Source: Phycisphaerae bacterium
Lineage (GTDB): Bacteria; Planctomycetota; Phycisphaerae; Sedimentisphaerales; UBA12454
Direction of reading: 5' to 3'
NCBI GenBank assembly: GCA_041478555.1
Contig: JBGOWI010000003.1
Span: 8,408 to 72,407, forward strand
DNA length: 64,000 nt
Part shown: positions 4,206 through 43,260 of the stretch, in pieces
Layout of the letters: the number at the start of each line of letters is the position of its first letter
How positions within the stretch are numbered: the stretch's first letter is position 1
Notes under the pieces: generated by a model
Told to the model about the DNA's origin: nothing
Databases searched by the model: none
What the model saw: only the letters and a program-made list of their open reading frames with translations
Program-made: the position numbers and the translations under genes

Positions 4206-5894
4206 TTATATTTTGAGGTATGTCAAAGTCTTTTCGAGGATTTCTTTGACGACTGGTGCTGCGACTGACCCGCCAGTATAACCTTTGCCCAGTCTTTTGT
4301 TTGGCTTTCTGATAGAGACCAGAACAACGACGGCAGGCTTATCTACCGGAACGCCGCCGATGAATGATGCAACGTAATTTTCCTCATCGTAGCTGCCGTC
4401 AGTTTGGTTTGCGATATTGGCGGTGCCGGTCTTGCCCCAGACCTGCCATTTTTCCAGCGCAGCACTTTTGCCGGTACCGTTCCTGACAACCTCGACCATT
4501 GCCTTTCTGACCATCCACTGCGCCGTTTTGCTGCTGACGACAAAACCGCCGGTCTGTGCCGGTTCCGTAATTTTGAGCTTTTTGCCGGCATCGGAGACGA
4601 CAGCCTTTACGAGATAAGGCTTTATTACTCTGCCGTCATTGGCAAGAACGCAGTAAGCGAATGCTATCTGCATGGCCGTTACCGAAACCTCATGGCCGAA
4701 TGGCACTCTCGCAACGCTGTAGCCTGTCCACTTGTTAAGATTCCATACAACTCCCGGCTCTTCGCCGGGCAGGTCGATGCCCGTCTTTCGCCCGAAGCCG
4801 AAGAGCCTTATGCCTTCGTAAATCTTTGCAGCCCCCATCTTCTGACCGATTTTTGCCATCCCGATATTGCTCGAATGAGCAAGGATTTCACTGATTGTAA
4901 GATTTCCAAACCCTTCACGATATTCGCCGATTGCACCAAAACCTTTGCCGCTGTAATGGCCGTTCTCGCAGAAAATTGTCTCCTCCGGGTCGATTGAACC
5001 TGTTTCAATTGCCCAGGCAGCGACGACCGGCTTAAAGATGCTGCCCGGCTCATAAGGGTCGCTCAGCACATGATTGCCGAGACTTTTTGCATCCGCATCT
5101 TTTAAGTCTGTCGGATTAAAGTCAGGCAGAGAAACCATCGAAAGGACCGCACCGCTGCACGGGTCCATAACAAGAGCAACCGCAGATTCAGCCTGAAAGG
5201 CTTTAAATTGCTTCAAAAGGGCACAATGTGTGAATTCCTGAATTGTCGAATCAATTGTCGTAATTATATCTGAGCCGTCCTGTGCGAAAGACTCGCACTG
5301 GCCCAGGCGGACAGGTCTTCTTGCAGCGTCGGCAAAAAAAGTGCTCCGGCCTTCAGAGCCGCTCAGAACCTCGTCGTATTTCAATTCCAGCCCCGCAAGA
5401 CCTTGCTGGTCTGTGCCGACAAAACCTATCACGACGGCGGCGGCAGAGCCGAGAGGGTAAAATCTTTTCCATCTGCTTTCAATGCCGATACCGTTCAGCT
5501 TGAGTATCTGTTTTCTCTGCTGGTCGCTGAGTTTTGCATCGGTAACTATAGGCGCATATCCCTGATTACGGGCGGTGAGAATCAGCTTGGAGATTTCGAC
5601 AGGACCGATACCGGTAATGGCCGACAGACTCTCGGCGGTCTTTTTCAGCTCGCCGATTGCACGGGGTTCGGCAAATACGGTATCGATTTTATAGCTTGCT
5701 GCAAGGATTCTGCCTCGACAGTCAAGTATGGCCCCTCTGCGCGGCCTTTCAAGGAAGCTGGATTTCTGAGCCTTTACCGAGGCCTGATAGTAATAATCAG
5801 TCTTGAAATACTGGAGGTAAAAACAGCGGGCTGCCGTCCCCAGAAAACCTGCCGCGATAATTAAAAGCAATGATAAAGCAAATTTGTTTCGCAT
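4206..5894 (-). CDS. ftsI: Peptidoglycan D,D-transpeptidase FtsI (PBP3-like class B PBP)
   Basis: 562 aa with an N-terminal TM and motifs EPGSIFKP (SxxK), HSSN (SxN) and KTGT (KTG). It is the last gene of the mraZ-rsmH-ftsL cluster. Confidence 0.82.
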   Translation of the reverse strand: MRNKFALSLLLIIAAGFLGTAARCFYLQYFKTDYYYQASVKAQKSSFLERPRRGAILDCRGRILAASYKIDTVFAEPRAIGELKKTAESLSAITGIGPVEISKLILTARNQGYAPIVTDAKLSDQQRKQILKLNGIGIESRWKRFYPLGSAAAVVIGFVGTDQQGLAGLELKYDEVLSGSEGRSTFFADAARRPVRLGQCESFAQDGSDIITTIDSTIQEFTHCALLKQFKAFQAESAVALVMDPCSGAVLSMVSLPDFNPTDLKDADAKSLGNHVLSDPYEPGSIFKPVVAAWAIETGSIDPEETIFCENGHYSGKGFGAIGEYREGFGNLTISEILAHSSNIGMAKIGQKMGAAKIYEGIRLFGFGRKTGIDLPGEEPGVVWNLNKWTGYSVARVPFGHEVSVTAMQIAFAYCVLANDGRVIKPYLVKAVVSDAGKKLKITEPAQTGGFVVSSKTAQWMVRKAMVEVVRNGTGKSAALEKWQVWGKTGTANIANQTDGSYDEENYVASFIGGVPVDKPAVVVLVSIRKPNKRLGKGYTGGSVAAPVVKEILEKTLTYLKI

Positions 5895-6145: not shown

Positions 6146-6158
6146 GACTATTGAATAA

Positions 6159-6971
6159 TTAACGTGCCGGGAGTTTTAATTTCATACCGACAACGAGAGT
6201 ATCGGCGTCGGTAATCACGGATTTATTTAACTGGATAATTTCATCGTATCTATTGCCATTGCCGAGATATTCGGCGGCTATCTGCCAGAGACTGTCGGAT
6301 TCCTTTACAACGTATTGTCTGAACTGCTCGTTGGACGGTTGAGGGGTTTGGGGAGATGTAATTTTTGAAACCTTTTCAAAAAGGCCCGTTTTCAAAAGTG
6401 CATTTGTCTGATTTTCAAGCGGAGGTATAACCAGTTTTTGTCCGACCTGAATCTGGTCGATTGATTCGAGCTTGTCCTTGTTCGCATTATAAATTTTTTC
6501 AATGGAGGCAAGTTTGTTGCCGTTTTCGGGTCCGTATAATTTCTTTGCGATTTCCGCCAGACTGTCTCCCGGGCAGACAACATAGACCGTTGATGATTGC
6601 TGTTCTGCGGCGGGCTTTATTTCGACAAGTTCTTTTTGCACAGTTTCATTGCTGGTCGTATTTTCTTTTACAGCCTCTTCGGCAGCAGGCAGAATACCCT
6701 GATGGTGAATTTCAGCAGATGTGCTGTTCTGGTCGACTTTCGGAGTTTCTGTTACTACGGTTATGACCGGTTTGTGGCTCAGGGCAGGGGCGATGTTTCT
6801 GCTGGGTCCGACAAGAGCCGGCTGCTGCTCTTTGTAATGGCTTACATAGCCGACAGTGTCCGGAGCCTTGTTGTTTTTACTTAAAAAATCGGGCAGGCCG
6901 TTAATTACAAATGTTATAGCCACAATAAAGATAAGTGCTAAAAGTAATCCAATCTTTGCATCAGTTGTCAT
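6159..6971 (-). CDS. Membrane-anchored protein with two LysM domains
   Basis: N-terminal TM (IGLLLALIFIVAITFVI). Two LysM-like units: YVVCPGDSLAEIAKKLYG...QVGQKLVIP and YVVKESDSLWQIAAEYLG...VVGMKLKLP. Confidence 0.8.
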   Translation of the reverse strand: MTTDAKIGLLLALIFIVAITFVINGLPDFLSKNNKAPDTVGYVSHYKEQQPALVGPSRNIAPALSHKPVITVVTETPKVDQNSTSAEIHHQGILPAAEEAVKENTTSNETVQKELVEIKPAAEQQSSTVYVVCPGDSLAEIAKKLYGPENGNKLASIEKIYNANKDKLESIDQIQVGQKLVIPPLENQTNALLKTGLFEKVSKITSPQTPQPSNEQFRQYVVKESDSLWQIAAEYLGNGNRYDEIIQLNKSVITDADTLVVGMKLKLPAR

Positions 6972-6992
6972 TGACGAAACTCCTTTTTCTTT

Positions 6993-7895
6993 CTATAACT
7001 TGACAGCCATTCTTAACTTTGCACTTCTTGAACGCGGATTTTCGCGCCGCTCGCCAATCGAAGCGGTTACCGGTTTCTTTGTAGCTATCTCATAAATGCC
7101 GGCCGCTTTGTTTTGTCTGAAATTTGTTTTTACGATTCTGTCCTCAAGACTATGAAAACTGATAACCGCGATTTTTCCATTCTCTTTTAACAGATTTGGC
7201 GCTGCCGCCAGAAATTTTTCAAGATTTTTAAGTTCGGAATTTACAGCAATTCTCAGTGCCTGAAAGGTTTTCGTAGCCGGATGAATCCTGCTCTTTCGCG
7301 ATTTCGGACTGCATTTCAGGGCCCGGCATATGATGTTCACAAGTTCCGCAGTTGAGTCGATTTTCTTCTTCCCTCTGGCCTGAATAATGGAACGGGCAAT
7401 CTTCCTTGACGCCCGTTCCTGTCCCAAATTGTATATCAGGTCAGCCAATCCCTTTTCGTCCATGCTGTTGACTATATCAGCGGCTGAATACTCAAGTCTG
7501 TCATCCAGCCGCATATCGAGCTTCATATCTTGGTCAAAGCTGAGGCCTTTGCTCTCATCTGCAAGCTGAACGGAACAAACGCCGAGGTCTGCAAAAATCA
7601 AGTCAGCCTTTTCAATTCCGTTCTGCTTCAGGACTTCCGCAATGTTTGCAAAATTTTCGCGGACAAGCAGTACCTTACACGGCAAAAGAGCCAAATTCTG
7701 CCGGGCAATCGCCAGACAATTGTTGTCAATGTCAAGGCCGAGCAGGACGGCATCTTTGCCGAGAGATTTTGCAAGAATTTTGCTGTGTCCGCCGCACCCT
7801 ATTGTGGCGTCGACAACAACGGCATTTTCTTTTAGGCTTATTCCGGCAGCAAATTCAGCAAGCACAGGTGTATGTTCTGCCGGCATATTATTCAC
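6993..7895 (-). CDS. rsmH: 16S rRNA (cytosine1402-N4)-methyltransferase RsmH (MraW)
   Basis: HTPVL...DATIGCGGHS...FHSLEDRIVK...NPRSRSAKLR are canonical RsmH motifs. The gene sits in dcw context. Confidence 0.94.
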   Translation of the reverse strand: MNNMPAEHTPVLAEFAAGISLKENAVVVDATIGCGGHSKILAKSLGKDAVLLGLDIDNNCLAIARQNLALLPCKVLLVRENFANIAEVLKQNGIEKADLIFADLGVCSVQLADESKGLSFDQDMKLDMRLDDRLEYSAADIVNSMDEKGLADLIYNLGQERASRKIARSIIQARGKKKIDSTAELVNIICRALKCSPKSRKSRIHPATKTFQALRIAVNSELKNLEKFLAAAPNLLKENGKIAVISFHSLEDRIVKTNFRQNKAAGIYEIATKKPVTASIGERRENPRSRSAKLRMAVKL

Positions 7896-7939
7896 TTTTA
7901 AACATCCATAATAATTAACAGCTTAAATAATTATGCCGG

Positions 7940-8149
7940 TTAACTGACAGCGAGTTTCATCTCCTGTTCGACAAGAGCCTGCACGTAAGGTGAGAACTCG
8001 ACGTCGATAAGTGTGCGGTGCAGCTTGCGGACGTTCTCGAGTCTTTCTGCAAGGATGTTTATCGATGCGAAGGTCTGCTCGTCGGTGGTTCTGCCGCCTG
8101 TGAGACTATCACGCACAATTTCAAAGTGGTCCGGTTCGATTGTTTGCAT
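7940..8149 (-). CDS. Hypothetical 69-aa protein between mraZ and rsmH
   Basis: ATG at 8149 has an AAGGAG Shine-Dalgarno 7 nt upstream and lies 11 nt after the mraZ stop. I recognise no family. Confidence 0.5.
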   Translation of the reverse strand: MQTIEPDHFEIVRDSLTGGRTTDEQTFASINILAERLENVRKLHRTLIDVEFSPYVQALVEQEMKLAVS

Positions 8150-8160
8150 AAGCCTTCTCC

Positions 8161-8634
8161 TTAGAGTTCTTTACTTTGTTTTTGCAAAACTGCCTGTCTT
8201 GCCTGCATTGTCTGCTGCTGGAACTGGCGAAAATGGTCTGAAAAATATTTGTCCCAGTCTTCGGTGTTCCACAGTTCAATATGGTCGCGGATGCCTATAA
8301 GCGTCAGGTTGTTCTGCAGGTTCGCTCGTTTTCTGATTTTTTCAGTTATTAATAATCTGCCCTGCCGATCCAGCTCGACCTTGCTGGCCAGAGCGAAACT
8401 CATTCGCTCAAAGACTACTGCCTCATCGGGGGCCACCGTCCCTGGCGACTCGGCAAGGGCAATCTGTCGAAAATATTTTTCAGGATAAAGACACAATATC
8501 CCGTTGGGGCCGAGGGTCAGGTAGAAGCTGCTGCCGTGCTCGTCGCAGTCTATCTGACTGCGGAGCTTGTTGGAGATGAAAACTCTGCCTTTTTCATCAA
8601 CTGTGCCTTCGTATTCTCCTGTTAATAAAAGCAT
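8161..8634 (-). CDS. mraZ: Transcriptional regulator MraZ
   Basis: 157 aa beginning MLLLTGEYEGTVDEKGRVFISNKLR, with the duplicated SpoVT/AbrB-like MraZ fold pattern. It is the first gene of the dcw cluster. Confidence 0.9.
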   Translation of the reverse strand: MLLLTGEYEGTVDEKGRVFISNKLRSQIDCDEHGSSFYLTLGPNGILCLYPEKYFRQIALAESPGTVAPDEAVVFERMSFALASKVELDRQGRLLITEKIRKRANLQNNLTLIGIRDHIELWNTEDWDKYFSDHFRQFQQQTMQARQAVLQKQSKEL

Positions 8635-33125: not shown

Positions 33126-35657
33126 ATGTTTAGTAAAAAAGCAGAAATTCTGATTTTGTTTATTCTTATAATTTTTTCCGCTGCCGGTGCTGGTGCAGCC
33201 GTCGAGGCTAATGCAGTTGCCGAGGCTAATATTGTTGCCGACGTTAATACGGCTGCTAAGGTTGATACAGTTGCCAGGACTGATACGGCTGCCAGGGCCG
33301 AGGCGGCTGCCGAGATTAATACGATTGTCGGCACCGGTATGGTTGCCGGGCAGGAAGAATTGCTTTCTCCTCTGACGGCAAAAACTTTTTATGATGTCGG
33401 CTATGAGCTTTATACAGCCAAAGATGCTAATTTTCTTTCAGCGAGGCAGGCGATTATATTTTTCGATGCCGCGGTTAATCTCGACAGCAGGGCAAATTAT
33501 GTTCTGGCTGATATTATTGATATTGCATGGCAATATCCCGAAGAGAATTTTTCAGATGCCGTTAAACTGGCGCTTAATGAATATATCGACCACTCAACAG
33601 ACCTTGAAGTTGCGTCAAAGGCGGTAGGGTATCTGCTTGAAAGACTCGACAGCAGAGAGGAGCGCGAAGAGCTGCTGACGAAACTAATTTATCGGTTCCA
33701 GCAGAAAAATGTCATGTTTGCATCAGACCTCTCGGCGCAGCTTGGGCTTCTGGTGGCTGAAACTGCCGATGCTGCCGAGGCTCAAAGATATCTTGCGCGG
33801 GCTTTTTTAGCGAACAAATACAACCGTCTTGCCTTTGCCAAGCTTGCCGAGCTTGCCGAGACAGGGGGACAACCGCTGCCTGACATTGTCTATCTTCAGA
33901 ATCTCCGTTTCGCAGTAAGGGCCAACCCGCTTGATTTTGACTCTGCCTTGAGATTTGCGCAATATGTAGAAGTACTCGGACTTTATGAGCCTGCTTCGGC
34001 GGCATACCGATACTGTGTGGATTTATTCAGGTATCTTAACAAACAGAAATCTGTAGGACTGGACATTTACAGGCCGTGGATTCTTAACTGTTATAACGCC
34101 CGGCAGTACATCCAGTGTCGGCAGATACTTGAGCAGCTTCGCGACAAAGGTATCTTTGATGTACAGGTCGAAGCAATTGCTTCGGCAGCAGCTTTGCAGA
34201 GCGATGACAAACAGAATCAGAAAGCGATACTCGATAGGATAGAAGCACGTGCAGGTGAAATTCTTGCCGGCAGGCAGAAGGTCTCTGCATCGGAGCTTGA
34301 GGATTTCGCATGGTTTTTCGCTTTTTTAGTCGACGTCAATTCCGAGGAGGTTCTGACCTGGGCGACGAAGGCCTATGATGCCGAGCCGAATTCGGTCAGT
34401 GCTGCTTCGCTTTTTGCTTATGCACTTATAATAAGCGAACAGAGCGAACTTGCCGGGCCGCTGCTGGAAAAAATCGGTACCACGACACAGGCAGCGGGAC
34501 TTGCCAAGGCGATGGTTCTTATGCAAAAGGAAGATGCAAATTCAGCAGCGGACCTGCTTAAGAAGGTGGTTGATACCCTGCCGGGAAGTTTTGAGGCACA
34601 AAAGGCAAAAGCAAAACTTAAAGAGCTCGGCTCTGAATATGAACCTGTGATTGATTCCGCAGCGTTTATAACGGCACTGCAGAGTGATTTTGGGCAGACG
34701 TTTTTCAGTCAGTTTATTGAACCTGAAAAGATGGTATCGCTGGAGTTCAAGGTAAAAGGTTCTGCGTTTTCTTACGGAAGTGAAATCACAGGCAATCTTG
34801 CGATAATAAATAATTATTCGGAGCCGATGGTCGTATGCCCCGATGCGATGCTCAAAGGCAATATAAGAATCGATGCGAAGATAGCCGGCGATTTGACCGA
34901 GCAGATGCCGGCTCTTATTGTTAAAACTGTCCGTCCGTCATACGAAATCAGGCCGGGCGATGCGTTGTTTATTCCGCTGCGGCTCGATACCGGCAGGATA
35001 AAATGTATTCTTGACTGTCACCCGCAGGCGGAACTGAACCTTGAATATACGGCCTACGTTGACCCGCAGGTAACTGCGGACGGCCGGATAAGAAACGCAC
35101 TTGCAATAAAACCTGCACAGGTGATTCTAAGTCGTCGCAAACTTGATATCAGCACCCGCTATCTGCAGCAGAGGCTTGATGCGCTGAAGAAAGGACATCA
35201 GGGTCAGAAGACAAAATCCGCCCAGCTTTTTGCAGGCCTGCTTGCCGAACAGCAGAAGTTCAGACAAACCGGCCCTGCTTACAGATTTCTATATGCGGAG
35301 CCGCAGTTATTAAGTTCGGCACTTGCCAGGTGTCTGGCTGAAGATGACTGGATTTTAAAGGTGCAGACAATCGCTGCAATGTTAAGGCTGAAACTGGATT
35401 ACCGGCTGACAGAAGCAGTATCGGCGGAATTAAATAATCCCAACTGGCCTGTAAGATTAATGGCTGTTTTTGCTCTTGCCAGAACTCAGGATGAAAAGTT
35501 TAAGCCTGTTTTGAGCTGGACAGCGAAAAATGACCCGCAGCCGCAGGTTCGGAAATTGGCCGCGCTCCTTTCAGGCAAAGTTGAAACGGCCCGTGGTGAG
35601 CTTGTCGAACCCAACACCAACGATATCAATCTGCCTAATCCGCCCCCGGCGGATTGA
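33126..35657 (+). CDS. Large secreted TPR/HEAT-like repeat protein (hypothetical)
   Basis: Signal peptide, a tandem hexapeptide region, long alpha-helical repeat architecture and C-terminal HEAT-like LNNPNWPVRLMAVFALA. The ATG at 33126 is preferred over the TTG at 33120. Confidence 0.6.
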   Translation: MFSKKAEILILFILIIFSAAGAGAAVEANAVAEANIVADVNTAAKVDTVARTDTAARAEAAAEINTIVGTGMVAGQEELLSPLTAKTFYDVGYELYTAKDANFLSARQAIIFFDAAVNLDSRANYVLADIIDIAWQYPEENFSDAVKLALNEYIDHSTDLEVASKAVGYLLERLDSREEREELLTKLIYRFQQKNVMFASDLSAQLGLLVAETADAAEAQRYLARAFLANKYNRLAFAKLAELAETGGQPLPDIVYLQNLRFAVRANPLDFDSALRFAQYVEVLGLYEPASAAYRYCVDLFRYLNKQKSVGLDIYRPWILNCYNARQYIQCRQILEQLRDKGIFDVQVEAIASAAALQSDDKQNQKAILDRIEARAGEILAGRQKVSASELEDFAWFFAFLVDVNSEEVLTWATKAYDAEPNSVSAASLFAYALIISEQSELAGPLLEKIGTTTQAAGLAKAMVLMQKEDANSAADLLKKVVDTLPGSFEAQKAKAKLKELGSEYEPVIDSAAFITALQSDFGQTFFSQFIEPEKMVSLEFKVKGSAFSYGSEITGNLAIINNYSEPMVVCPDAMLKGNIRIDAKIAGDLTEQMPALIVKTVRPSYEIRPGDALFIPLRLDTGRIKCILDCHPQAELNLEYTAYVDPQVTADGRIRNALAIKPAQVILSRRKLDISTRYLQQRLDALKKGHQGQKTKSAQLFAGLLAEQQKFRQTGPAYRFLYAEPQLLSSALARCLAEDDWILKVQTIAAMLRLKLDYRLTEAVSAELNNPNWPVRLMAVFALARTQDEKFKPVLSWTAKNDPQPQVRKLAALLSGKVETARGELVEPNTNDINLPNPPPAD
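33207..33332 (+). repeat. Intragenic tandem repeat, 7 x 18 nt (hexapeptide A-[ND]-x-[AV]-A-x)
   Basis: gctaatgcagttgccgag / gctaatattgttgccgac / gttaatacggctgctaag / gttgatacagttgccagg / actgatacggctgccagg / gccgaggcggctgccgag / attaatacgattgtcggc. Confidence 0.8.
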
Positions 35658-35741
35658 TTTTCCCTGTGGCAATTTTTTAGTGCACTACACACGACACATG
35701 ACGAATTGTTGCCTTTGCTTTCGGCCCCCCCCCGTCATATT

Positions 35742-36437
35742 GTTGTGGATTGACATCAGGTCGGGATTTGTTACACTAACCGTCAGGAAAACCGTCAGCC
35801 CCAGTATGTTGTGGATTGACATCAGGTCGGGATTTGTTACACTGCTTTCCAGGCAAAGGATTCAGCTTCGCCGGTTGTGGATTGACATCAGGTCGGGATT
35901 TGTTACACTTATGCGGCCGGCAGATATCGAAACGTCCGGGTTGTGGATTGACATCAGGTCGGGATTTGTTACACTCGATAAGAGCGGAGATGCCTGCAGA
36001 AGCACGTTGTGGATTGACATCAGGTCGGGATTTGTTACACTCTTTGCCATTCCGCATATTCCGTATGATGAGTTGTGGATTGACATCAGGTCGGGATTTG
36101 TTACACTTCGGGCAAGCCGACGTTCACGGACCATGCGGTTGTGGATTGACATCAGGTCGGGATTTGTTACACTGGAAAAGTTGTCCTATAGCTATAACAT
36201 CTAGTTGTGGATTGACATCAGGTCGGGATTTGTTACACTAACATATATTTGCGCCATTAGTCTATTCCCGTTGTGGATTGACATCAGGTCGGGATTTGTT
36301 ACACTGCTCGTAATGGCCGAAGACTACGGCAAGGCGTTGTGGATTGACATCAGGTCGGGATTTGTTACACTCAGATGTTTGATATCATAAAGTGGGTCAT
36401 TGTTGTGGATTGACATCAGGTCGGGATTTGTTACACT
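35742..36437 (+). CDS. PLACEHOLDER Confidence 0.
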
Positions 36438-36468
36438 ACCTGTTCCGCAACCTGAGCAATTGTAAGGA

Positions 36469-36504
36469 CTTGTGGACCGAACAGCCTAAAATAATTCGAG
36501 CTGT
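36469..36504 (+). repeat. Possible degenerate terminal CRISPR repeat (trailer end), overlapping the 3' end of cas2
   Basis: cTTGTGGAccGA matches 9 of the first 12 repeat positions after a 31-nt spacer-length gap. The rest has diverged. Confidence 0.4.
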
Positions 36505-36815
36505 TTGGGTGCTGGAGGTGTCGGTTTTCGCATTTTTCCCCAGAAAATCTGCATTTTTTCAAACTGTTTGTCAGTGATTGTAACAAGCCGAACCTCGCCA
36601 TCCGGCGGCAAAAAAATCTGTATCCTGCGGTAATGAACATCGGCATTTTCCTCACTTGCACAGTGCCTTGCATATACTGAGTATTGTAGCATAGCAAAGC
36701 CGTCTTTTAAAAGGTTTTTTCGAAAATGCGTATAATCTTTTCGTGCCTTTTCCGTATCCGTCGGCAAATCAAACATCGCAAAAATCCACACTGCCCTGTA
36801 CCCGCTTATTATCAT
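36486..36815 (-). CDS. cas2: CRISPR-associated endoribonuclease Cas2
   Basis: 109 aa, VWIFAMFDLPTDTEKARKDYTHFRKNLLKDGFAMLQYSVYARH is the Cas2 ferredoxin-fold pattern. It is adjacent to cas1 and the array. Confidence 0.92.
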   Translation of the reverse strand: MIISGYRAVWIFAMFDLPTDTEKARKDYTHFRKNLLKDGFAMLQYSVYARHCASEENADVHYRRIQIFLPPDGEVRLVTITDKQFEKMQIFWGKMRKPTPPAPKQLELF

Positions 36816-36918
36816 AAATCAATATTTGTTTAGCCGCCGCCGGCACGGCAGCGCGTCATTCCCGCGAAAGCGGGAATCCAGTTCCTTTTTATTTCTGCGG
36901 AATCCGTGAAATCCGCGG

Positions 36919-37806
36919 TTAAATTTTTGGTAATTCAATTTCCTTCTGTTCTCCGCAAAAGCATCTTACAAGCGATGCCGCTGTCCGATGAAGCCCGACC
37001 ATTAGCGGCCCTTTATAATCTGCAATTTCAACCTCATCATAAAGCACCTCAAGCAGTCTTGCTTTTATCGTCTGCGTTAATTCCTCCCAGTCTCCGCCTT
37101 CAACAATTTCCTTAACTTTCGCCTCAACAAATCCTCTGAAAGGCTCGACCAAATCATCTGCAAGGCAAAACGCGTTATACCTGTTTCGATGATGAAGTCC
37201 GACAGAAGGCAATAATCCTGCGCTGCAAATCGCACGCGCCACCGCCGCCCGCATTACCATATAACCGTAATTCAATAGATTATTCGGCGGCTTCCCTTCA
37301 GCATCTCTTCTGAATTCCAAACCTTGAATATAGGCACTCCAGAATAATTTGCTTGCCCTCGCCTCGATATTAGAAGGGTCGCCGCTGCGAACCTGACTTA
37401 TCAATGCTGTTAATGCTTTGTAAGTTTGCGTTTCGTCTTTGATAAGTTTTGCCTGATGTCTGATTTTCGCGCGTACTATCTGCTGCCAGAGTTTCTTTTT
37501 GAGCGGCTCTTTTGCGTTTATCTGTTTTGCGTATCTTTCGGTTTGGATTGTATTGGCTTCTATCGGCAAAAGCATCCCGGCTGGCAAATGATTGCTGTCA
37601 CAAAGCACCACAGCCGCGCCGCATTTTAATAATTCAGTAAAAACACAGTGTGTATAATTTGTCGCTTGATTATCGACTAAAAGTACGCCAATGTCTTCAC
37701 AGGGTATTGAGCTTGTATCTTTACCGTCCTGCTTAATAACTAACTGGCCGTATTTTATTGATAGAGATGTCCTTTCCCGCGAAATCTCTATTATCTTTTT
37801 AATCAA
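36919..37806 (-). CDS. cas1: CRISPR-associated endonuclease Cas1 (type II)
   Basis: 295 aa with conserved Cas1 blocks (NLLNYGYMVMRAAVARAICSAGLLPSVGLHHRNRYNAFCLADDLVEPFR). Confidence 0.95.
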   Translation of the reverse strand: MIKKIIEISRERTSLSIKYGQLVIKQDGKDTSSIPCEDIGVLLVDNQATNYTHCVFTELLKCGAAVVLCDSNHLPAGMLLPIEANTIQTERYAKQINAKEPLKKKLWQQIVRAKIRHQAKLIKDETQTYKALTALISQVRSGDPSNIEARASKLFWSAYIQGLEFRRDAEGKPPNNLLNYGYMVMRAAVARAICSAGLLPSVGLHHRNRYNAFCLADDLVEPFRGFVEAKVKEIVEGGDWEELTQTIKARLLEVLYDEVEIADYKGPLMVGLHRTAASLVRCFCGEQKEIELPKI

Positions 37807-37808
37807 AC

Positions 37809-40800
37809 TTAATCTCTAATTAGTTCCTTAACTTCGCCAAGCGGACTTATCCACACTTTAACAGGTGGTTGCCCTTCTTCAATGCCGAGATGTTGAATAT
37901 CGGAAGGCTTTAAACCGCCTGTTTTGCTGCCCGTTTTTTTGACTTCTTCTCTCGCTTTGGCTTTTTCTGTTTCTTTGTCTCTTCCTGCATCATAGTGAGG
38001 GGTAAAGTGTATTGTGCCGGTGCCATCTATCTTAAAAACAACAAAATACCCCGGCACTTTGGTTTCGGGATGTCGCATATAAACCATCTCGCCGATTGAT
38101 AAGGACATAACAAATTTGCCATTTTGGGAATCATCACGATTAATTGCAGGCAGAGGTTTTAGCCCGCTTGATTTTGGCGGATTTACTCTTTTTGCGGCAT
38201 CAAAATTTCTAATAACCTCACCGGTCCATTTTTCTTTTTCATTTTCTCTGATTTCTATGTGATGGTTATTCTGTGGCTCGTATGCCCTAATTGCTTTTTG
38301 GTGAGGGTCATATTCCATTTTACCGGTGCTTAAATTCCACTGCTTTCGTGGAATTGTTATTACAGTTGGAGACCGCAAAAGAGTAAATTGGCGGATAGGG
38401 ACTCCGCTTTTTAGAAACAGGCCTTTTTCTTTGACAAGTTTTTTTATTTCTTTTTCGCTGAAATTGTCGGGGTCTAACCCTTCAGTTCTCAGGCATTCTC
38501 TTATTTCTTCTCTAAACCATCTATCACGAATTACACCGGATTTCCCGGGTTTTACATCCGGCAGTTTAAGCATTTCTAATCTTATAGATTTTCGTTCCCG
38601 CTTTGATGAGCAGTTTTTCAGTTTTTCCCGCAGTTCATCCCAACCTTTAAGCACTTGTAAATGGTTTGGGGTCAGTTCAATAGCAAATTTGCGTAAGGTA
38701 AATTGTTCGGTCAAATTTCCATCCTTATCAAGTATTGGGCCGTATTGTGTATCATTATGGAAAGCCCCAACTATTTTTCGGGCGGCGGGCCTGTGAGAAA
38801 CTACCAAATTTCTCCATTCATTCATAACCTGCGCACGGAAACTTTCGACATTTCCCCATGGTGGGCTTATCAGTGGTCTCTCCGCAAGTTTTTTGCCCTC
38901 TTCTTCGGCTTTCTCAAGTTTTTGGAATAGCAGCGAAATTTGTTGCACTCTATCCGGCCCTGAGAGCGCTATAGCAACAGCGTCTAAGGCGTGATGCCTA
39001 TGGTCAGAACGGTTTTTTTCAAAAGGTTCTCCCTTTTTGCTGTCTGGGAAAAGCTGCCAATCTCTGCGCAAAAGTGCTGTATATCGCCCGCTTGTTGTAA
39101 AAACTCTTTTGATTCCATCTCTTTCTCCATTATAAAGAACATCTCGAAGCCAGTTAACAACTTGTTTTGCGGCGTATGCTGCATCTGTAAGTTGCGAAGC
39201 TACGAATTCGTCTAAATCTGGCGCATCTTTATGAAGATTATCCCACTTTACTAGATTTTTTTCCTTGAGATGCCTTAACCTCTGTTCAAACTTCTGAAAC
39301 CGTTCTTCGGTGAACCACTCTTTTGGGGTTTTGTTCCCTTTCCCACGGTTACAGCCAGTATGGCAAAGTAATAAATTACTCAGAAAGCTATTTCCTCCAC
39401 GACTCTCTGGTATTATGTGGTCGATTTCAACCCCATTTCCTTCTGCCGCAGTTTTTTCGCTGATAGCGTTGATTCCGTTACCACAATATGCACATTGCTC
39501 TTTCTGCTCTCGACAAAGTAATACCCTTTTAACGGCCTTTTCCTGCTGATTTTTGGTTTTTTGTTCCAAACCAAATTCTTCCATTATTTTTCTTTTTTCT
39601 TCTTCACGCTCTCGATTTTCAGATAGTTTTTTATTTCTCACAACCGCTGATTGTCTGGCTTCTCTTACCAGTTCAACTATTACTCTGTCAGGTTTACAAC
39701 CGAATTTTCTTATATGTTCCTGGATGTGCCGCTTTACTTCATGGATTGCCTTGCGGACAACAGGATTACTTAGCATTGCCGGCGCAGGCGGTAGTAAATC
39801 AGGATGTTTTTGTTGAAATCTCCGCATTGCATGATTACCACTGCCTCCTTTGAAACTATACCGTCTTCTTTGCTCATTCGTTGCTCCATTTGTCGCATCT
39901 TCTGCGAAAAGATTTCTTGCCTCATTAACCGTAAATCCGTCACGCATATATGGAAGCAAATTTTTTATAGCTCTCCTGGAATACTCCAGCCGATCTTCTG
40001 CTTTTGGCCGTTTTGTCCACGCTTCTATAAACTTTTCAGCCTGTTTCTCATCAAAGCCCCACCATTTTTTACAGCCTTCCGCTAAATACTTTTTGTCTTT
40101 TTCAGAGGTCGGGTCAAACTTTAATATGGCTTTATTTACTGAGTCTTTTTGTGCCGATGTAAGCTTCTCCCAATTCGATTCACTAATTGCACTAGAGATT
40201 ATTTCACGATAAAACCACCATGTGTTTAATTTTCTCTTTGGGTCAGCGTCTAAACTCAACGTATAAAGGGTTTTATTTTCTCCTTTATGAAGCCCTAATG
40301 CTTTTCTTGCTGTTGCAGCGGTAACGGTCTTTTGATCTTTTAGAACCTCAAAAACCTTTGGTTTTTCCTCGTTATTCAACGGTCTCGAAACTTCACCTGG
40401 CGGAGTTATCCTTATATTGTTTAATGTCTCAAGGACAAGATAATCCTGAGCGTACATATCAGCCTTGGGGCATTTAAGGTCAGTAGGTTCCAAATCGCAC
40501 CTTCCCATAGTTCCCATATCCCAGTATGTTTTACGCTGACCAAATAATATTCCTTTATATCTCCACGTTGCATCGCTCGAATTGTCATCAAGTTTTTTTC
40601 TGACAGGGTCAGTTAACTGATTTGCAAGTTCACCATTAAAAGATTTCTGTTTTTTCCACAGAGTATCAAATTCATTCCAGAGCAGGTCTCGGTCTGCACA
40701 AAATTCATATGTGGGTTCTTTGGCAGCGTTTGTCCGATTGCGAATTGCCTGTCCCACTTTTATAACATTGCCGTTTGCGTCTTTTTTCTGAAGAGGTGTT

Positions 40801-41357
40801 TTTCTTTCTTCGTAAAGCACTGCCATCAATTCCCCAAAGGTTCTTGCATTGCGATTTTTCATTTCCTCTTTCGCATGGTCGATTGCCCCTTTGATTTTCT
40901 TTGCCTCTTTGTCTTTTGTCTCTGTATTTTTGCTGTTCTCTTGTTCCTCTTTTTCAGTATTTTCTGGTTGTTCCGGCTCCTCGTTAAATCCATACGCTCC
41001 TCGTCGTTGCACAAGGTGCAATAGAACACGACCGAATTCACGAGGCGTAAGCTCTCCGTCAAGGCCTTTTTTTCTCAAAGACCATGGGTTTAATTTCATC
41101 TCTGTATCAGTGGGCGTCCAACTCAACTCCGCTAAGAATTTTCGCATTTGCCATTTCCTTTCGGCACGGCGTTCAATGCTTCTGCGTTGGCCACGATAGG
41201 TTCGTCTTGCTTGGTTTTTAGGTGCGCCGCGTTTGTCTTCTGATTCCTCTACCCCCGCAGGAAACACACCTACGCCCATTTTTATTATTCGCTCGTCTGT
41301 GTCAACTCCTGCTGAACCGACCGAATTTGTACCAATATCTAATCCCAACAATTTCAT
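37809..41357 (-). CDS. cas9: CRISPR-associated endonuclease Cas9, 1182 aa (type II-C architecture)
   Basis: RuvC-I LGLDIGTNSVGSA, Arg-rich bridge helix RRTYRGQRRSIERRAERK, RuvC-II IVELVREA, HNH EIDHIIPESRGGNSFLSNLLLCHTGCNRGKGNKTP and RuvC-III HHALDAVAIAL are all present. AGGAG SD upstream of ATG 41357. No csn2 or cas4 in the locus. Confidence 0.95.
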   Translation of the reverse strand: MKLLGLDIGTNSVGSAGVDTDERIIKMGVGVFPAGVEESEDKRGAPKNQARRTYRGQRRSIERRAERKWQMRKFLAELSWTPTDTEMKLNPWSLRKKGLDGELTPREFGRVLLHLVQRRGAYGFNEEPEQPENTEKEEQENSKNTETKDKEAKKIKGAIDHAKEEMKNRNARTFGELMAVLYEERKTPLQKKDANGNVIKVGQAIRNRTNAAKEPTYEFCADRDLLWNEFDTLWKKQKSFNGELANQLTDPVRKKLDDNSSDATWRYKGILFGQRKTYWDMGTMGRCDLEPTDLKCPKADMYAQDYLVLETLNNIRITPPGEVSRPLNNEEKPKVFEVLKDQKTVTAATARKALGLHKGENKTLYTLSLDADPKRKLNTWWFYREIISSAISESNWEKLTSAQKDSVNKAILKFDPTSEKDKKYLAEGCKKWWGFDEKQAEKFIEAWTKRPKAEDRLEYSRRAIKNLLPYMRDGFTVNEARNLFAEDATNGATNEQRRRYSFKGGSGNHAMRRFQQKHPDLLPPAPAMLSNPVVRKAIHEVKRHIQEHIRKFGCKPDRVIVELVREARQSAVVRNKKLSENREREEEKRKIMEEFGLEQKTKNQQEKAVKRVLLCREQKEQCAYCGNGINAISEKTAAEGNGVEIDHIIPESRGGNSFLSNLLLCHTGCNRGKGNKTPKEWFTEERFQKFEQRLRHLKEKNLVKWDNLHKDAPDLDEFVASQLTDAAYAAKQVVNWLRDVLYNGERDGIKRVFTTSGRYTALLRRDWQLFPDSKKGEPFEKNRSDHRHHALDAVAIALSGPDRVQQISLLFQKLEKAEEEGKKLAERPLISPPWGNVESFRAQVMNEWRNLVVSHRPAARKIVGAFHNDTQYGPILDKDGNLTEQFTLRKFAIELTPNHLQVLKGWDELREKLKNCSSKRERKSIRLEMLKLPDVKPGKSGVIRDRWFREEIRECLRTEGLDPDNFSEKEIKKLVKEKGLFLKSGVPIRQFTLLRSPTVITIPRKQWNLSTGKMEYDPHQKAIRAYEPQNNHHIEIRENEKEKWTGEVIRNFDAAKRVNPPKSSGLKPLPAINRDDSQNGKFVMSLSIGEMVYMRHPETKVPGYFVVFKIDGTGTIHFTPHYDAGRDKETEKAKAREEVKKTGSKTGGLKPSDIQHLGIEEGQPPVKVWISPLGEVKELIRD

Positions 41358-41388
41358 AAAACTCTCCTAATTTTATGTAAAAATTCTC

Positions 41389-41416
41389 TTGCAATATTTA
41401 TCAGAAACCCTATAAT
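41389..41416 (+). promoter_or_regulatory. Putative tracrRNA promoter (TTGCAA-16 nt-TATAAT)
   Basis: Hexamers at 41389-41394 and 41411-41416. The anti-repeat begins 8 nt after the -10 element. Confidence 0.5.
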
Positions 41417-41422
41417 GCCGCT

Positions 41423-41532
41423 TGTGTAACTAATCCCGGCTTGCGTTTTTTCACAACAAGACGAAAAATTCGCAGGCACCGCCGAAAGGCGACCGCTGTA
41501 GCCCGTGCAAACCACGGTTCTACAGCTTTTTT
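41423..41532 (+). ncRNA. Predicted tracrRNA (anti-repeat 41424-41457, internal hairpins, intrinsic terminator ending in T6 at 41527-41532)
   Basis: GTGTAACTAATCCCGGCTTGCGTTTTTTCACAAC is complementary to the CRISPR repeat (14-bp, 6-bp and 6-bp helices around an internal loop). It is followed by a cgcc-gaaa-ggcg hairpin and a gctgtag...ctacagc terminator stem. Confidence 0.75.
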
Positions 41533-41577
41533 ATATCTGCAATTTAGACACCTCATTAGAAAATGTTATTGTAATAA

Positions 41578-41605
41578 ATACCTCAAAATTTAGAGGTATT
41601 TTTTT
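41578..41605 (+). terminator. Second intrinsic terminator-like hairpin downstream of the tracrRNA
   Basis: Stem atacctc / gaggtat followed by a T-run of at least 7 (41599-41605). Confidence 0.4.
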
Positions 41606-42318
41606 CTCCACTGTGGTCTGGCCGCAGGAATTTTACCAAAGGAACCTCGAATTGTCCACATAACAAATTTTGCGCAAGTCGTAGTTGCAAAAAACGCTCG
41701 AAATTCGTAAAAACTCCTCATTTCTTGGTAATTTTAGGGTAAAAAAACGAAAAAAACGAAAAAATTGAAAATTTCCACCCTCATTTTTAGCGTAATTTTA
41801 AAAACTTGCGCAAATGTCAAAAAAACTTGCGCAAATTTTCGAGAAAATCGTTCATAACTCCTTTATTTTCGTGGTAGTTTTTATCATAAGTCTTTATTTT
41901 ATGTAGTCGATTTTGCCTGCCCTGAGCGCCTGTGGTGAGCGTAGTCGAACCATGTCGAATGGGCCATAAGTCCTTATTTTTTATTAACTGTTTGTGTTGT
42001 AAATCCTTATTTCTTGTCGTCGATTTTTTGAAAATTTTGAATTTTGGTAATTCGAATTTGTTTCCACCGTAAGGTGTCCTGTGGAGGATTTCGATATTCG
42101 GATTTCGGATTTCGGATCTATCTTCTTTACGTCCTGAATATGTAATTTTGACTTTAAACCTTTGTTAATATAGGGTTATGAATAAGCTAAATTTATTTTT
42201 TATTTGGATTTTGCCGAATTTTTTGTTGTCAAATTGGCTTGACTTTTGTATTATTTCCGCCTCAAATTGTGTAATTTGTAAAACGTTGCGTTTATGTTGT
42301 TTTTGAAAGGGATTTTTT

Positions 42319-42492
42319 ATGCCGGCAAAAGTAAATGAAGACAAATGCACCGGTTGTGAGGCGTGTATTGATGCCTGCCCGGCTGAAGCGATAAAAATGG
42401 TTGATGGCAAGGCGGTAGTAGATGTCGACACTTGCGTTGACTGTGGTGTTTGTGTTGACGAGTGCCCTGTTGAAGCGATAGAGATGGAGTAA
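42319..42492 (+). CDS. 2x[4Fe-4S] ferredoxin, 57 aa (below the ORF-track length cut-off)
   Basis: MPAKVNEDKCTGCEACIDACPAEAIKMVDGKAVVDVDTCVDCGVCVDECPVEAIEME has two CxxCxxCxxxCP clusters. TTGTCA-17-TATTAT lies at 42226-42254. Confidence 0.8.
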   Translation: MPAKVNEDKCTGCEACIDACPAEAIKMVDGKAVVDVDTCVDCGVCVDECPVEAIEME

Positions 42493-42544
42493 TCCCGGCG
42501 GTACAATCGCGAAAACTGCGTTGGGTGATTGAATTTATATCTTC

Positions 42545-42619
42545 GGCCCCATCGTCTAGGCCGGTCCAGGACACCGGGTTTTCAACCCGGCAACAGGGGT
42601 TCGAATCCCCTTGGGGCTA
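42545..42619 (+). tRNA. tRNA-Glu (anticodon UUC)
   Basis: GGCCCCATCGTCTAGGCCGGTCCAGGACACCGGGTTTTCAACCCGGCAACAGGGGTTCGAATCCCCTTGGGGCTA forms a cloverleaf with anticodon loop TTTTCAA. Confidence 0.9.
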
Positions 42620-42630
42620 GATTATAAAAA

Positions 42631-42658
42631 CAGACGTCTTTTTAAGGCGTCTGTTTTT
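42631..42658. terminator. Bidirectional terminator-like hairpin (A5 - stem - T5)
   Basis: Stem cagacg / cgtctg flanked by aaaaa and ttttt, between tRNA-Glu (+) and the 42733 gene (-). Confidence 0.5.
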
Positions 42659-42732
42659 ATAAATTCAAAATTCAAAAATAAAAATTGTGGAATCCCGATA
42701 AATCGGGATAACGGTTTTATTATTTTTCTGAT

Positions 42733-43260
42733 TTACCTTGCGGCAGAAAGGGACATGATTTCTCTTGCTACGATGTCGGCGATGATAAGCTGTTGAGGCG
42801 AAGCGGGAGCAGAAGGCATTGAATTTACAGGCATTTTTTGAGGCTGAGCTTCCTGCTGCAAATTGCCGTCTGAATTGTTGTTTTGCAGAGGGGATTTTCT
42901 TTTAAGTCCTGCTACTTTTCTTTGTTGAGCAAGAATCTGACTGCCGAGGTCAAGCGAAGGCATTTCGCTTGAGCGGTCCTGCTGCTGGGGACGGCTTATT
43001 TTTTCGACCATTCGACTTACAAACTCTTTTCGGGCTGCAGCGGGCTCCGCCCCGACGAGTGAGCCGGTGTTCTGAACAGGCGGATGTGCCTGTGCGGCTT
43101 TGTTTTTTAAAATATCCTCAAAGACAGGCATGACACGTGGAGCTGATTTTGAATTTTTCGGCTGGGATGATTCGTTCTGCTGCCCGACAGCCTTTAAGAA
43201 GTCCTGTTTGCATCTTGCAATATCTTGCTCAATCCGGTTGTTGTAACTATCGTTTTGCAT
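42733..43260 (-). CDS. Hypothetical Q/P-rich protein
   Basis: 175-aa ORF upstream of the M16 peptidase pair. It is low complexity and I recognise no family. Confidence 0.45.
   Translation of the reverse strand: MQNDSYNNRIEQDIARCKQDFLKAVGQQNESSQPKNSKSAPRVMPVFEDILKNKAAQAHPPVQNTGSLVGAEPAAARKEFVSRMVEKISRPQQQDRSSEMPSLDLGSQILAQQRKVAGLKRKSPLQNNNSDGNLQQEAQPQKMPVNSMPSAPASPQQLIIADIVAREIMSLSAAR

Follow-up and report, generated by a model that had tools for sequence, protein, structure and literature searches.

The window, i.e., the whole stretch of 64,000 nucleotides of Phycisphaerae DNA analysed here, contains a locus that by its sequence is a type II-C CRISPR-Cas9 system of Planctomycetota type, with the tracrRNA gene placed back-to-back to cas9. 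The genes, the array and the neighbouring features are arranged as follows.

35742-36437, + strand: CRISPR array of 11 identical 36-nt repeats (GTTGTGGATTGACATCAGGTCGGGATTTGTTACACT) and 10 spacers of 30 nt
36486-36815, minus strand: cas2, 109 aa (PF09827, 2e-17)
36919-37806, minus strand: cas1, 295 aa (PF01867, 1e-26)
37809-41357, minus strand: cas9, 1182 aa (Pfam RuvC_III, HNH and Cas9_a)
42319-42492, + strand: ferredoxin gene, 57 aa
42545-42619, + strand: tRNA-Glu

The gene set is that of subtype II-C, consisting of cas9, cas1 and cas2 alone with no csn2 or cas4, and no additional ORF was found between cas2 and the array. The start of cas1 overlaps the stop of cas9, and thus neither a tracrRNA nor any other RNA gene can lie between these two genes. 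The 103-nt spacer between cas1 and cas2 contains a perfect hairpin, ATTCCCGCG-AAA-CGCGGGAAT (36846-36875), whose sub-threshold match to the Rfam family FtrB (25.8 bits against a gathering score of 66) is probably meaningless. At E<=1e-20, about 680 relatives of the Cas9 protein were found. The nearest reach about 60% identity, and those of them that are named are Cas9 proteins of Planctomycetota (Phycisphaerae, Sedimentisphaerales and Pirellulales). The best solved relatives of the protein in the PDB are compact chains of 1055-1095 aa, matched at E 1e-46 over partial stretches only. A syntenic relative of 96% identity, from JGI sample 3300031707, is present in the metagenome contigs L081-L083 and L085, and the gene set of L081 (cas9, cas1 and cas2) is identical to that of the window. 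The metagenome scan, performed with a single protein, returned only one close relative, identical to L081. Another protein, P0054 (83% identity), was rejected for comparison, its contig holding only the C-terminal part and lacking the upstream region.

The region upstream of cas9 is a divergent one of 960 nt, without credible ORFs, that extends to the ferredoxin gene. Within it, in intergenic DNA and on the strand opposite to cas9, a tracrRNA gene begins 66 nt upstream of the cas9 ATG and is followed by a second terminator.

41389-41416, + strand: tracrRNA promoter, composed of the −35 hexamer TTGCAA (41389-41394, palindromic), a 16-nt spacer and the −10 hexamer TATAAT (41411-41416)
41423-41532, + strand: tracrRNA of about 109-110 nt, delimited by covariance model R1, co-fold and covariation
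41424-41457, + strand: anti-repeat of 34 nt, GTGTAACTAATCCCGGCTTGCGTTTTTTCACAAC
41458-41480, + strand: conserved core AAGACGAAAAATTCGCAGGCACC (AAGACG...GGCACC)
41480-41491, + strand: CGCC-GAAA-GGCG hairpin
41495-41526, + strand: nested terminator GCTGTAG...CTACAGC, followed by T6 at 41527-41532
41576-41607, + strand: second intrinsic terminator, AAATACCTC-loop-GAGGTATTT followed by a T run (T7)

A preliminary description of this DNA had named the promoter, anti-repeat, core, hairpin and both terminators, and all of these were found where it had placed them. The promoter scored 10/12 in a consensus scan and 12.1 bits in a position-weight scan. The distance from the cas9 ATG (41357) to the tracrRNA −35 hexamer was measured to be 31 nt, the earlier value being 32 nt, and this gap contains the Shine-Dalgarno sequence AGGAGAG (41362-41368, minus strand). 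The gene was found in silico to have its own promoter and Rho-independent terminator (consensus scan and fold), and the fold of the isolated tracrRNA has a z of −4.5 relative to shuffles. The second terminator is located 44 nt past the first and is missing from the 96%-identical L081, in which this segment is non-homologous. Read from the minus strand, it has no more than UUAUUAC as a tail and would terminate transcription only weakly.

Pairing between the repeat and the anti-repeat was observed to involve three helices, exactly as originally proposed. One helix joins anti-repeat nt 1-14 to repeat nt 22-35 and contains a single U-U mismatch; the second is formed by GGCUUG and repeat nt 16-21, with two G-U pairs, and the third by CACAAC and repeat nt 1-6. 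The single mismatch is due to an A28-to-T change on the repeat side relative to L081 and L013. The co-fold that the preliminary description had suggested gave −40.8 kcal/mol, as against −14.1±3.1 kcal/mol for 1000 shuffled anti-repeats, the best of which reached −26.1 kcal/mol. Outside the array, nothing in the locus pairs better with the repeat than this anti-repeat (−42.5, the runner-up reaching −29.8), and it is the only anti-repeat in the window, no second one having been found by repeat pairing or by the model scan. In 18/18 array-bearing relatives examined, the best anti-repeat lies directly upstream of cas9 on the opposite strand. In addition, repeat and anti-repeat co-vary across 13 loci, the cognate duplexes averaging −48.1 kcal/mol versus −34.2 kcal/mol for the non-cognate ones.

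Since the + strand carries the anti-repeat, it is also the strand from which the crRNAs are to be read, so that the array runs towards cas2 and against the direction of the cas genes. Every repeat (11/11) holds TTGACA-16-TGtTACACT, which scored 15.0 bits in the position-weight scan, and the frame TTGnnn-16-TACA[AC]T is kept in the repeats of all 13 relatives examined. A repeat-embedded promoter and an oppositely directed array, the marks of Neisseria-like crRNA biogenesis, were thus both found in silico. No repeat-like sequence (<=12 mismatches) was found outside the array. Repeat position 28 is T in all 11 repeats of the window versus A in the repeats of L081 and L013, and this change creates the TGn of an extended −10 in the repeat-embedded promoter.

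The window, L081 and L013 share the repeat type GTTGTGGATTGACATCAGGTCGGGATT. L013 is from Planctomycetes bacterium GWF2_41_51 (array 6153-8167, tracrRNA 1074-1179). In the best tblastn segment, its Cas9 has only 46% identity to that of the window. The repeats of the two nevertheless agree at 35/36 positions, and the tracrRNA, the tracrRNA promoter (TTGCAA) and the distal promoter discussed below are very similar in L013 and the window. Closer Cas9 relatives (about 60%) carry a different repeat type. A possible reason is that the RNA module, or cas9, has been exchanged as a module.

Comparison among relatives was based on an alignment, A2, of 26 related tracrRNAs, from which the covariance model R1 was built. 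R1 matches the window once, at 41423-41532 (112.5 bits, E 1e-21). In about 67 related loci it likewise has a match, without exception opposite to cas9, and some 55-135 nt separate the 5' end of the element from the start of cas9. The common design in A2 consists of the anti-repeat, CACAAY-AAGAYGAAARATTCGYAGGCACC, a small GC hairpin, GACC and the nested terminator, and the AGGCACC core is invariant in all 26 sequences. In the 3' helices of the tracrRNA, 95.9% of cells are paired, versus 88.8% with shuffled partners and 34-49% with slid partners; double changes were observed in 9/16 pairs of these helices, with 0/500 shuffles performing as well, and the frequent G-U pairs are possible on the + strand only. 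Of the 65 relatives scanned, essentially all have a sigma-70-like promoter at the corresponding position, the 0..+20 bin holding 72 hits. A search of Rfam with 35000-43000 at E<=1 returned no tracrRNA family, the only matches being tRNA-Glu and two chance sRNA matches; this tracrRNA clade is absent from Rfam. Overall, the original tracrRNA call holds, as shown by a conserved family, co-variation with the repeat, compensatory changes in the stems and the same orientation in about 67 loci, and the element is almost certainly the tracrRNA of a type II-C locus. As a tracrRNA it is ordinary, and its place upstream of cas9 is the usual one.

Some relatives carry additional tracrRNA-like genes. L081 contains a second complete one at about 5500-5672 (minus strand, locus coordinates), also present in L082, L083 and L085 and absent from the window. 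It lies about 250 nt beyond the first and has its own promoter and terminator. Its anti-repeat, GTGTAACTAATCCTGACCTGTGGTCGTTGTAGTTCACAAT, pairs with the repeat at −48.6 kcal/mol, as well as that of the first gene, and its −35 hexamer, TTGTCC, is the reverse complement of a cas9-sense TGGACA. A second R1 match upstream of the first was found in L049 (4408-4513), L061 (4673-4777), L026 (741-848) and L027 (4646-4748), at 40-56 bits, and tandem tracrRNA copies thus recur in this Cas9 clade. A truncated tracrRNA paralog is located directly past the tracrRNA terminator, on the minus strand, in L001 (about 1700-1821), L002 (about 4680-4784), L004 (about 4690-4798), L011 (about 4670-4774) and L014 (about 4675-4782), with possible 3' remnants in L007, L015 and L017. 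In this paralog a mini-hairpin, G-CTTGT-CAYR-ACAAG, replaces the anti-repeat and is followed by CGCAGGCAC, a long GC hairpin and AAACCTTTT, so that by sequence the RNA looks like a single-guide or scaRNA scaffold. The idea that the second elements of relatives are natural single guides against the cas9 promoter was rejected, no seed match of at least 9 nt being found in these loci.

Where does transcription of cas9 begin? The ferredoxin gene and tRNA-Glu are both on the + strand, leaving cas9 without a same-strand neighbour for co-transcription, and the cas9 promoter must therefore fall between 41358 and about 42318. (An ORF-based test for same-strand upstream genes in relatives was dropped because the GC-rich contigs made it too noisy.) No cas9-sense promoter in the gap before cas9 scored above 5.3 bits and the best site overlaps the ATG, which confirms the earlier statement that this gap has no convincing minus-strand promoter. 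The palindromic TTGCAA has no −10 at a workable minus-strand distance at which it could serve as a proximal cas9 −35. A repeat-inherited promoter complementary to the anti-repeat was also considered and rejected, the window having TACACA without a −35. A 74-aa ORF called in L081 antisense to the tracrRNA and overlapping the cas9 ATG was taken as a gene-caller artefact; its frame is interrupted in the window (TAA just before), where ORFs of 48 and 53 aa run in other frames. The scan of the remaining upstream region gave one candidate.

41630-41658, minus strand: candidate cas9 operon promoter, composed of −35 TGGACA (41658-41653), a 17-nt spacer and an extended −10 TGgTAAAAT (41638-41630)
41358-41623, minus strand: putative cas9 5' leader of about 266 nt, deduced from the predicted promoter position

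The candidate lies 98 nt beyond the tracrRNA 3' end and faces the tracrRNA promoter, with transcription predicted to begin near 41623. Among all cas9-sense sites in 41340-42330 it ranks first in the position-weight scan, with 13.3 bits versus 9.0 for the next best, and it scored 10/12 plus TG in the consensus scan. The promoter rules for Planctomycetota are not established; the TTGACA/−10 conserved upstream of every tracrRNA suggests, without proving it, that the sigma-70 consensus does apply. The window contains 20 sites of at least 13.3 bits, of which 11 are estimated to be the 15.0-bit CRISPR repeats, leaving about nine per 128 kb (both strands). The pattern TGGACA-N13-15-TGNTANNNT occurs once in the 64 kb, where 0.03 occurrences are expected, a count that is post hoc, since the pattern was derived from the same sequences, although it was a generic matrix that first picked out the sites. 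Among the 89 fetched loci, the pattern occurs only in L013, L059 and the L081 contigs, in each case in the cas9 sense and at a distance of 65-105 nt past the tracrRNA 3' end.

The alignment of the window with L081 and L013 covers the −35, the spacer and TGGTA and continues over about 25 nt of the start region. This motif is kept although its flanks have been replaced: window 41538-41774 is not BLAST-alignable to L081, whose 629 nt at this place include the second tracrRNA. The only close metagenome relative being identical to L081, the conservation of the distal promoter rests on three independent lineages. At the level of the clade, sites of at least 11 bits located 30-170 nt beyond the tracrRNA 3' end were found cas9-sense in 9/68 loci and on the other strand in 0/68, whereas 100 shuffles of this band gave 1.3±1.2 loci with such sites (maximum 6); in the next band out, sites of at least 11 bits were found in 1/65 loci. 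The preliminary description had suggested that cas9 may be transcribed from beyond 41532. This suggestion has gained indirect support from a conserved, strong sigma-70-like site and a clade-wide, strand-specific enrichment, and the start itself is a predicted one. The suggestion is now better founded because there is a conserved candidate and because the clade leaves no room for a conventional promoter. On these grounds the site 41658->41630 is somewhat likely to be the cas9 promoter.

Two other repeated features were noticed in this upstream region. A palindrome, TTGCGCAA (ACTTGCGCAAAT), flanked by A/T, is present in three copies (41664-41679, 41800-41815 and 41821-41836), the first abutting the candidate cas9 −35 on its upstream side, and has partial counterparts in L081; it could be a regulator binding site. 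In addition, units of AAATAAGGAcTTATG, a ribosome-binding-site-like motif plus ATG, are repeated at 41877-42027 of the window and at about 4930-5110 of L081, so that the block is conserved in the close relative. One unit opens a 22-aa ORF, MAHSTWFDYAHHRRSGQAKSTT (41899-41967, minus strand).

Taken together, a II-C tracrRNA gene facing a distal cas9 promoter is a fairly likely explanation of the locus as a whole, and would work as follows. The near-consensus sigma-70-type promoter at 41389-41416 would start tracrRNA synthesis at about G41424, the first base of the anti-repeat. Transcription would head away from cas9 and stop at the GC-rich nested hairpin and T6 (41532), with a back-up terminator ending at 41607. 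The crRNAs would be made from the promoter within each repeat, on the same strand as the tracrRNA, and the 3' repeat part of each would pair with the 5' end of the tracrRNA to form a bulged duplex bound by Cas9. Since cas9 has neither an upstream gene on its own strand nor a usable promoter in the 31-nt gap, it would most likely be driven by 41658->41630, from which the mRNA of the cas9 operon would start near 41623. A cas9 leader of about 266 nt is plausible; it would run antisense across the two terminators, all of the tracrRNA and the promoter of the latter, and would end in the Shine-Dalgarno sequence AGGAGAG (41368-41362). The cas9 message probably starts, then, by reading antisense through the tracrRNA gene. 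A terminator scan found no strong minus-strand terminator between 41623 and cas9, and read-through would be expected because neither terminator has a proper U tract on the minus strand.

What would be the consequence of such an overlap? The two promoters, both predicted and the distal one conserved, would face each other across about 200 bp between their starts. Polymerase coming from the cas9 promoter would traverse the tracrRNA promoter, leading to collision or occlusion and to mutual transcriptional interference, and a 110-bp sense/antisense duplex between tracrRNA and leader could couple the levels of cas9 mRNA and tracrRNA. The second + strand terminator, which is specific to the window, would hold tracrRNA read-through off the facing promoter. 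That the overlap has a regulatory effect is a tentative proposal, and the sign of the effect, i.e., whether it would lower, raise or couple expression, is not readable from the sequence. Equally tentative is the proposal that a tracrRNA nested antisense in the cas9 leader, between convergent promoters, hard-wires the supply of Cas9 and tracrRNA to each other. Such hard-wiring would act through polymerase collision at the strong tracrRNA promoter and through the 110-bp duplex, a mechanism that differs from the guide mechanism of tracr-L. Autoregulation of cas9 by overlap with the tracrRNA is speculative.

The alternative that survives best, though we regard it as rather unlikely, is that a weak or non-consensus promoter, overlapping the tracrRNA promoter back-to-back and sharing the palindromic TTGCAA region, drives cas9, which would give a leader of about 30 nt. 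In that case, 41658->41630 would be either inactive or left over from a second tracrRNA promoter that has been lost. Proximal promoters of this kind do occur in the clade. Cas9-sense promoters interleaved with the tracrRNA promoter were found at 11 bits or more in 7 loci and at 8 bits or more in about 17, and in the 12-17 clade members with such a site, e.g. L017 (14.8 bits) and L009 (14.0 bits), the −10 ends at +28 to +33 from the tracrRNA 5' end. In interleaved loci such as these two, the two TTGACA boxes form an inverted repeat, and the cas9 and tracrRNA promoters, being fully interleaved in this way, would be mutually exclusive. No such site is present in the window. Its homologous hexamer, AATATT (41398-41393), retains A2 and T6 but has no −35 partner, and no proximal site exceeds 5.3 bits. 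As to the relic, TGGACAA in L081 and the −35 (TTGTCC) of its second tracrRNA gene are reverse complements, so that the motif could in part descend from such a −35. The segment around the distal motif is otherwise not conserved between the window and this 96%-identical relative. However, the window, L081 and L013 have no proximal site and yet share both the distal motif and its extended −10, and the latter is not explained by a relic −35.

Less probable still, and in our judgement unlikely, is that 41658->41630 is active but yields only a short antisense RNA, whose synthesis ends at the 41607-41576 hairpin or inside the tracrRNA gene. This RNA would tune the tracrRNA or shield the region, and cas9 would use another start. 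About 16 nt past the predicted start, a transcript would indeed meet this hairpin, with its partly U-rich minus-strand tail, and the hairpin with its flanking A7/T7 runs resembles a bidirectional terminator. Convergent promoters are, moreover, a known way of damping a strong promoter. However, the UUAUUAC tail fails the terminator scan, the promoter but not the hairpin is kept in L081 and L013, and no alternative cas9 promoter was found. Finally, tracrRNAs are thought to derive from degenerate repeats (PMC3737331), but it is highly improbable that the element is merely a decayed CRISPR repeat lying by chance beside cas9 rather than a functional tracrRNA, since its promoter, core, hairpin and terminator are conserved, its stems and the repeat covary across about 67 loci, and the window has no other anti-repeat.

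The analysis provides a comparatively supported pair of tracrRNA and repeat for a little-studied clade of Cas9, and the predicted exact 5' end, core, hairpins and terminator are what the design of a single-guide RNA needs. If the convergent promoter is real, the locus would offer a simple, testable case of how a II-C system without tracr-L adjusts the level of Cas9 to that of its guide scaffold, and would explain why the tracrRNA promoter sits atop the cas9 ribosome-binding site throughout the clade.

How does this locus compare with known systems? A tracrRNA upstream of cas9 is the commonest position in II-A and II-C (Chylinski et al. 2013, PMC3737331), and in II-C loci the direction of the array is opposite to that of the cas genes (PMC3737331, PMC7708072); in the II-C loci of Defluviimonas and Pasteurella, the tracrRNA is upstream of the cas genes and the array is oppositely transcribed (PMC7708072). 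These descriptions are silent on the position of the cas9 promoter relative to the tracrRNA gene. The window differs from other loci with upstream tracrRNAs in that its tracrRNA promoter abuts the cas9 ribosome-binding site (31 nt), and this proximity leaves no room for a cas9 promoter in the gap.

For the type II-C system of Neisseria meningitidis, Zhang et al. reportedly found in 2013 that promoters are embedded in the repeats and that crRNAs start inside spacers. As in that system, the window has cas9, cas1 and cas2 only and an array opposite to the cas genes, its 36-nt repeats start with GTTGT and end in a −10-like TACAAT/TACACT, and the 5' end of the tracrRNA pairs with the 3' part of the repeat. 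In contrast, the Cas9 of the window is only distantly related, and its repeat also has a full −35 (TTGACA). [quoted passage not shown] The scaRNAs are small CRISPR/Cas-associated, sgRNA-like RNAs of Francisella and Neisseria (PMC13431127); relatives of the locus resemble these systems in carrying extra tracrRNA-like genes beside the tracrRNA, whereas the window has none.

The known control of cas9 by a tracrRNA is tracr-L of Streptococcus pyogenes (Workman et al., 2021), described in 10.1101/2023.03.03.530964 as a Cas9-bound guide with an 11-bp match to cas9 promoter DNA, and as needing an extra repeat-like segment 5' of the anti-repeat. A tracr-L-like long form was rejected for the window, in which only 66 nt separate the anti-repeat from the cas9 ATG, with no repeat-like segment and no second model match. 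What tracr-L would have in common with the arrangement proposed here is a tracrRNA gene beside cas9 that is tied to the control of cas9; unlike in that case, any control in the window would come from convergent transcription or antisense pairing. A search of a limited body of literature returned no description of a cas9 leader antisense to a tracrRNA or of a convergent arrangement, which does not prove that none exists. A further parallel is the control by convergent promoters and cis-antisense RNAs in bacteria and phages, with which the predicted arrangement shares facing promoters about 200 bp apart and fully overlapping transcripts. Unlike in cis-antisense control in general, the small RNA of the window would be, according to this proposal, a structural partner of the very protein encoded by the mRNA to which it is antisense.
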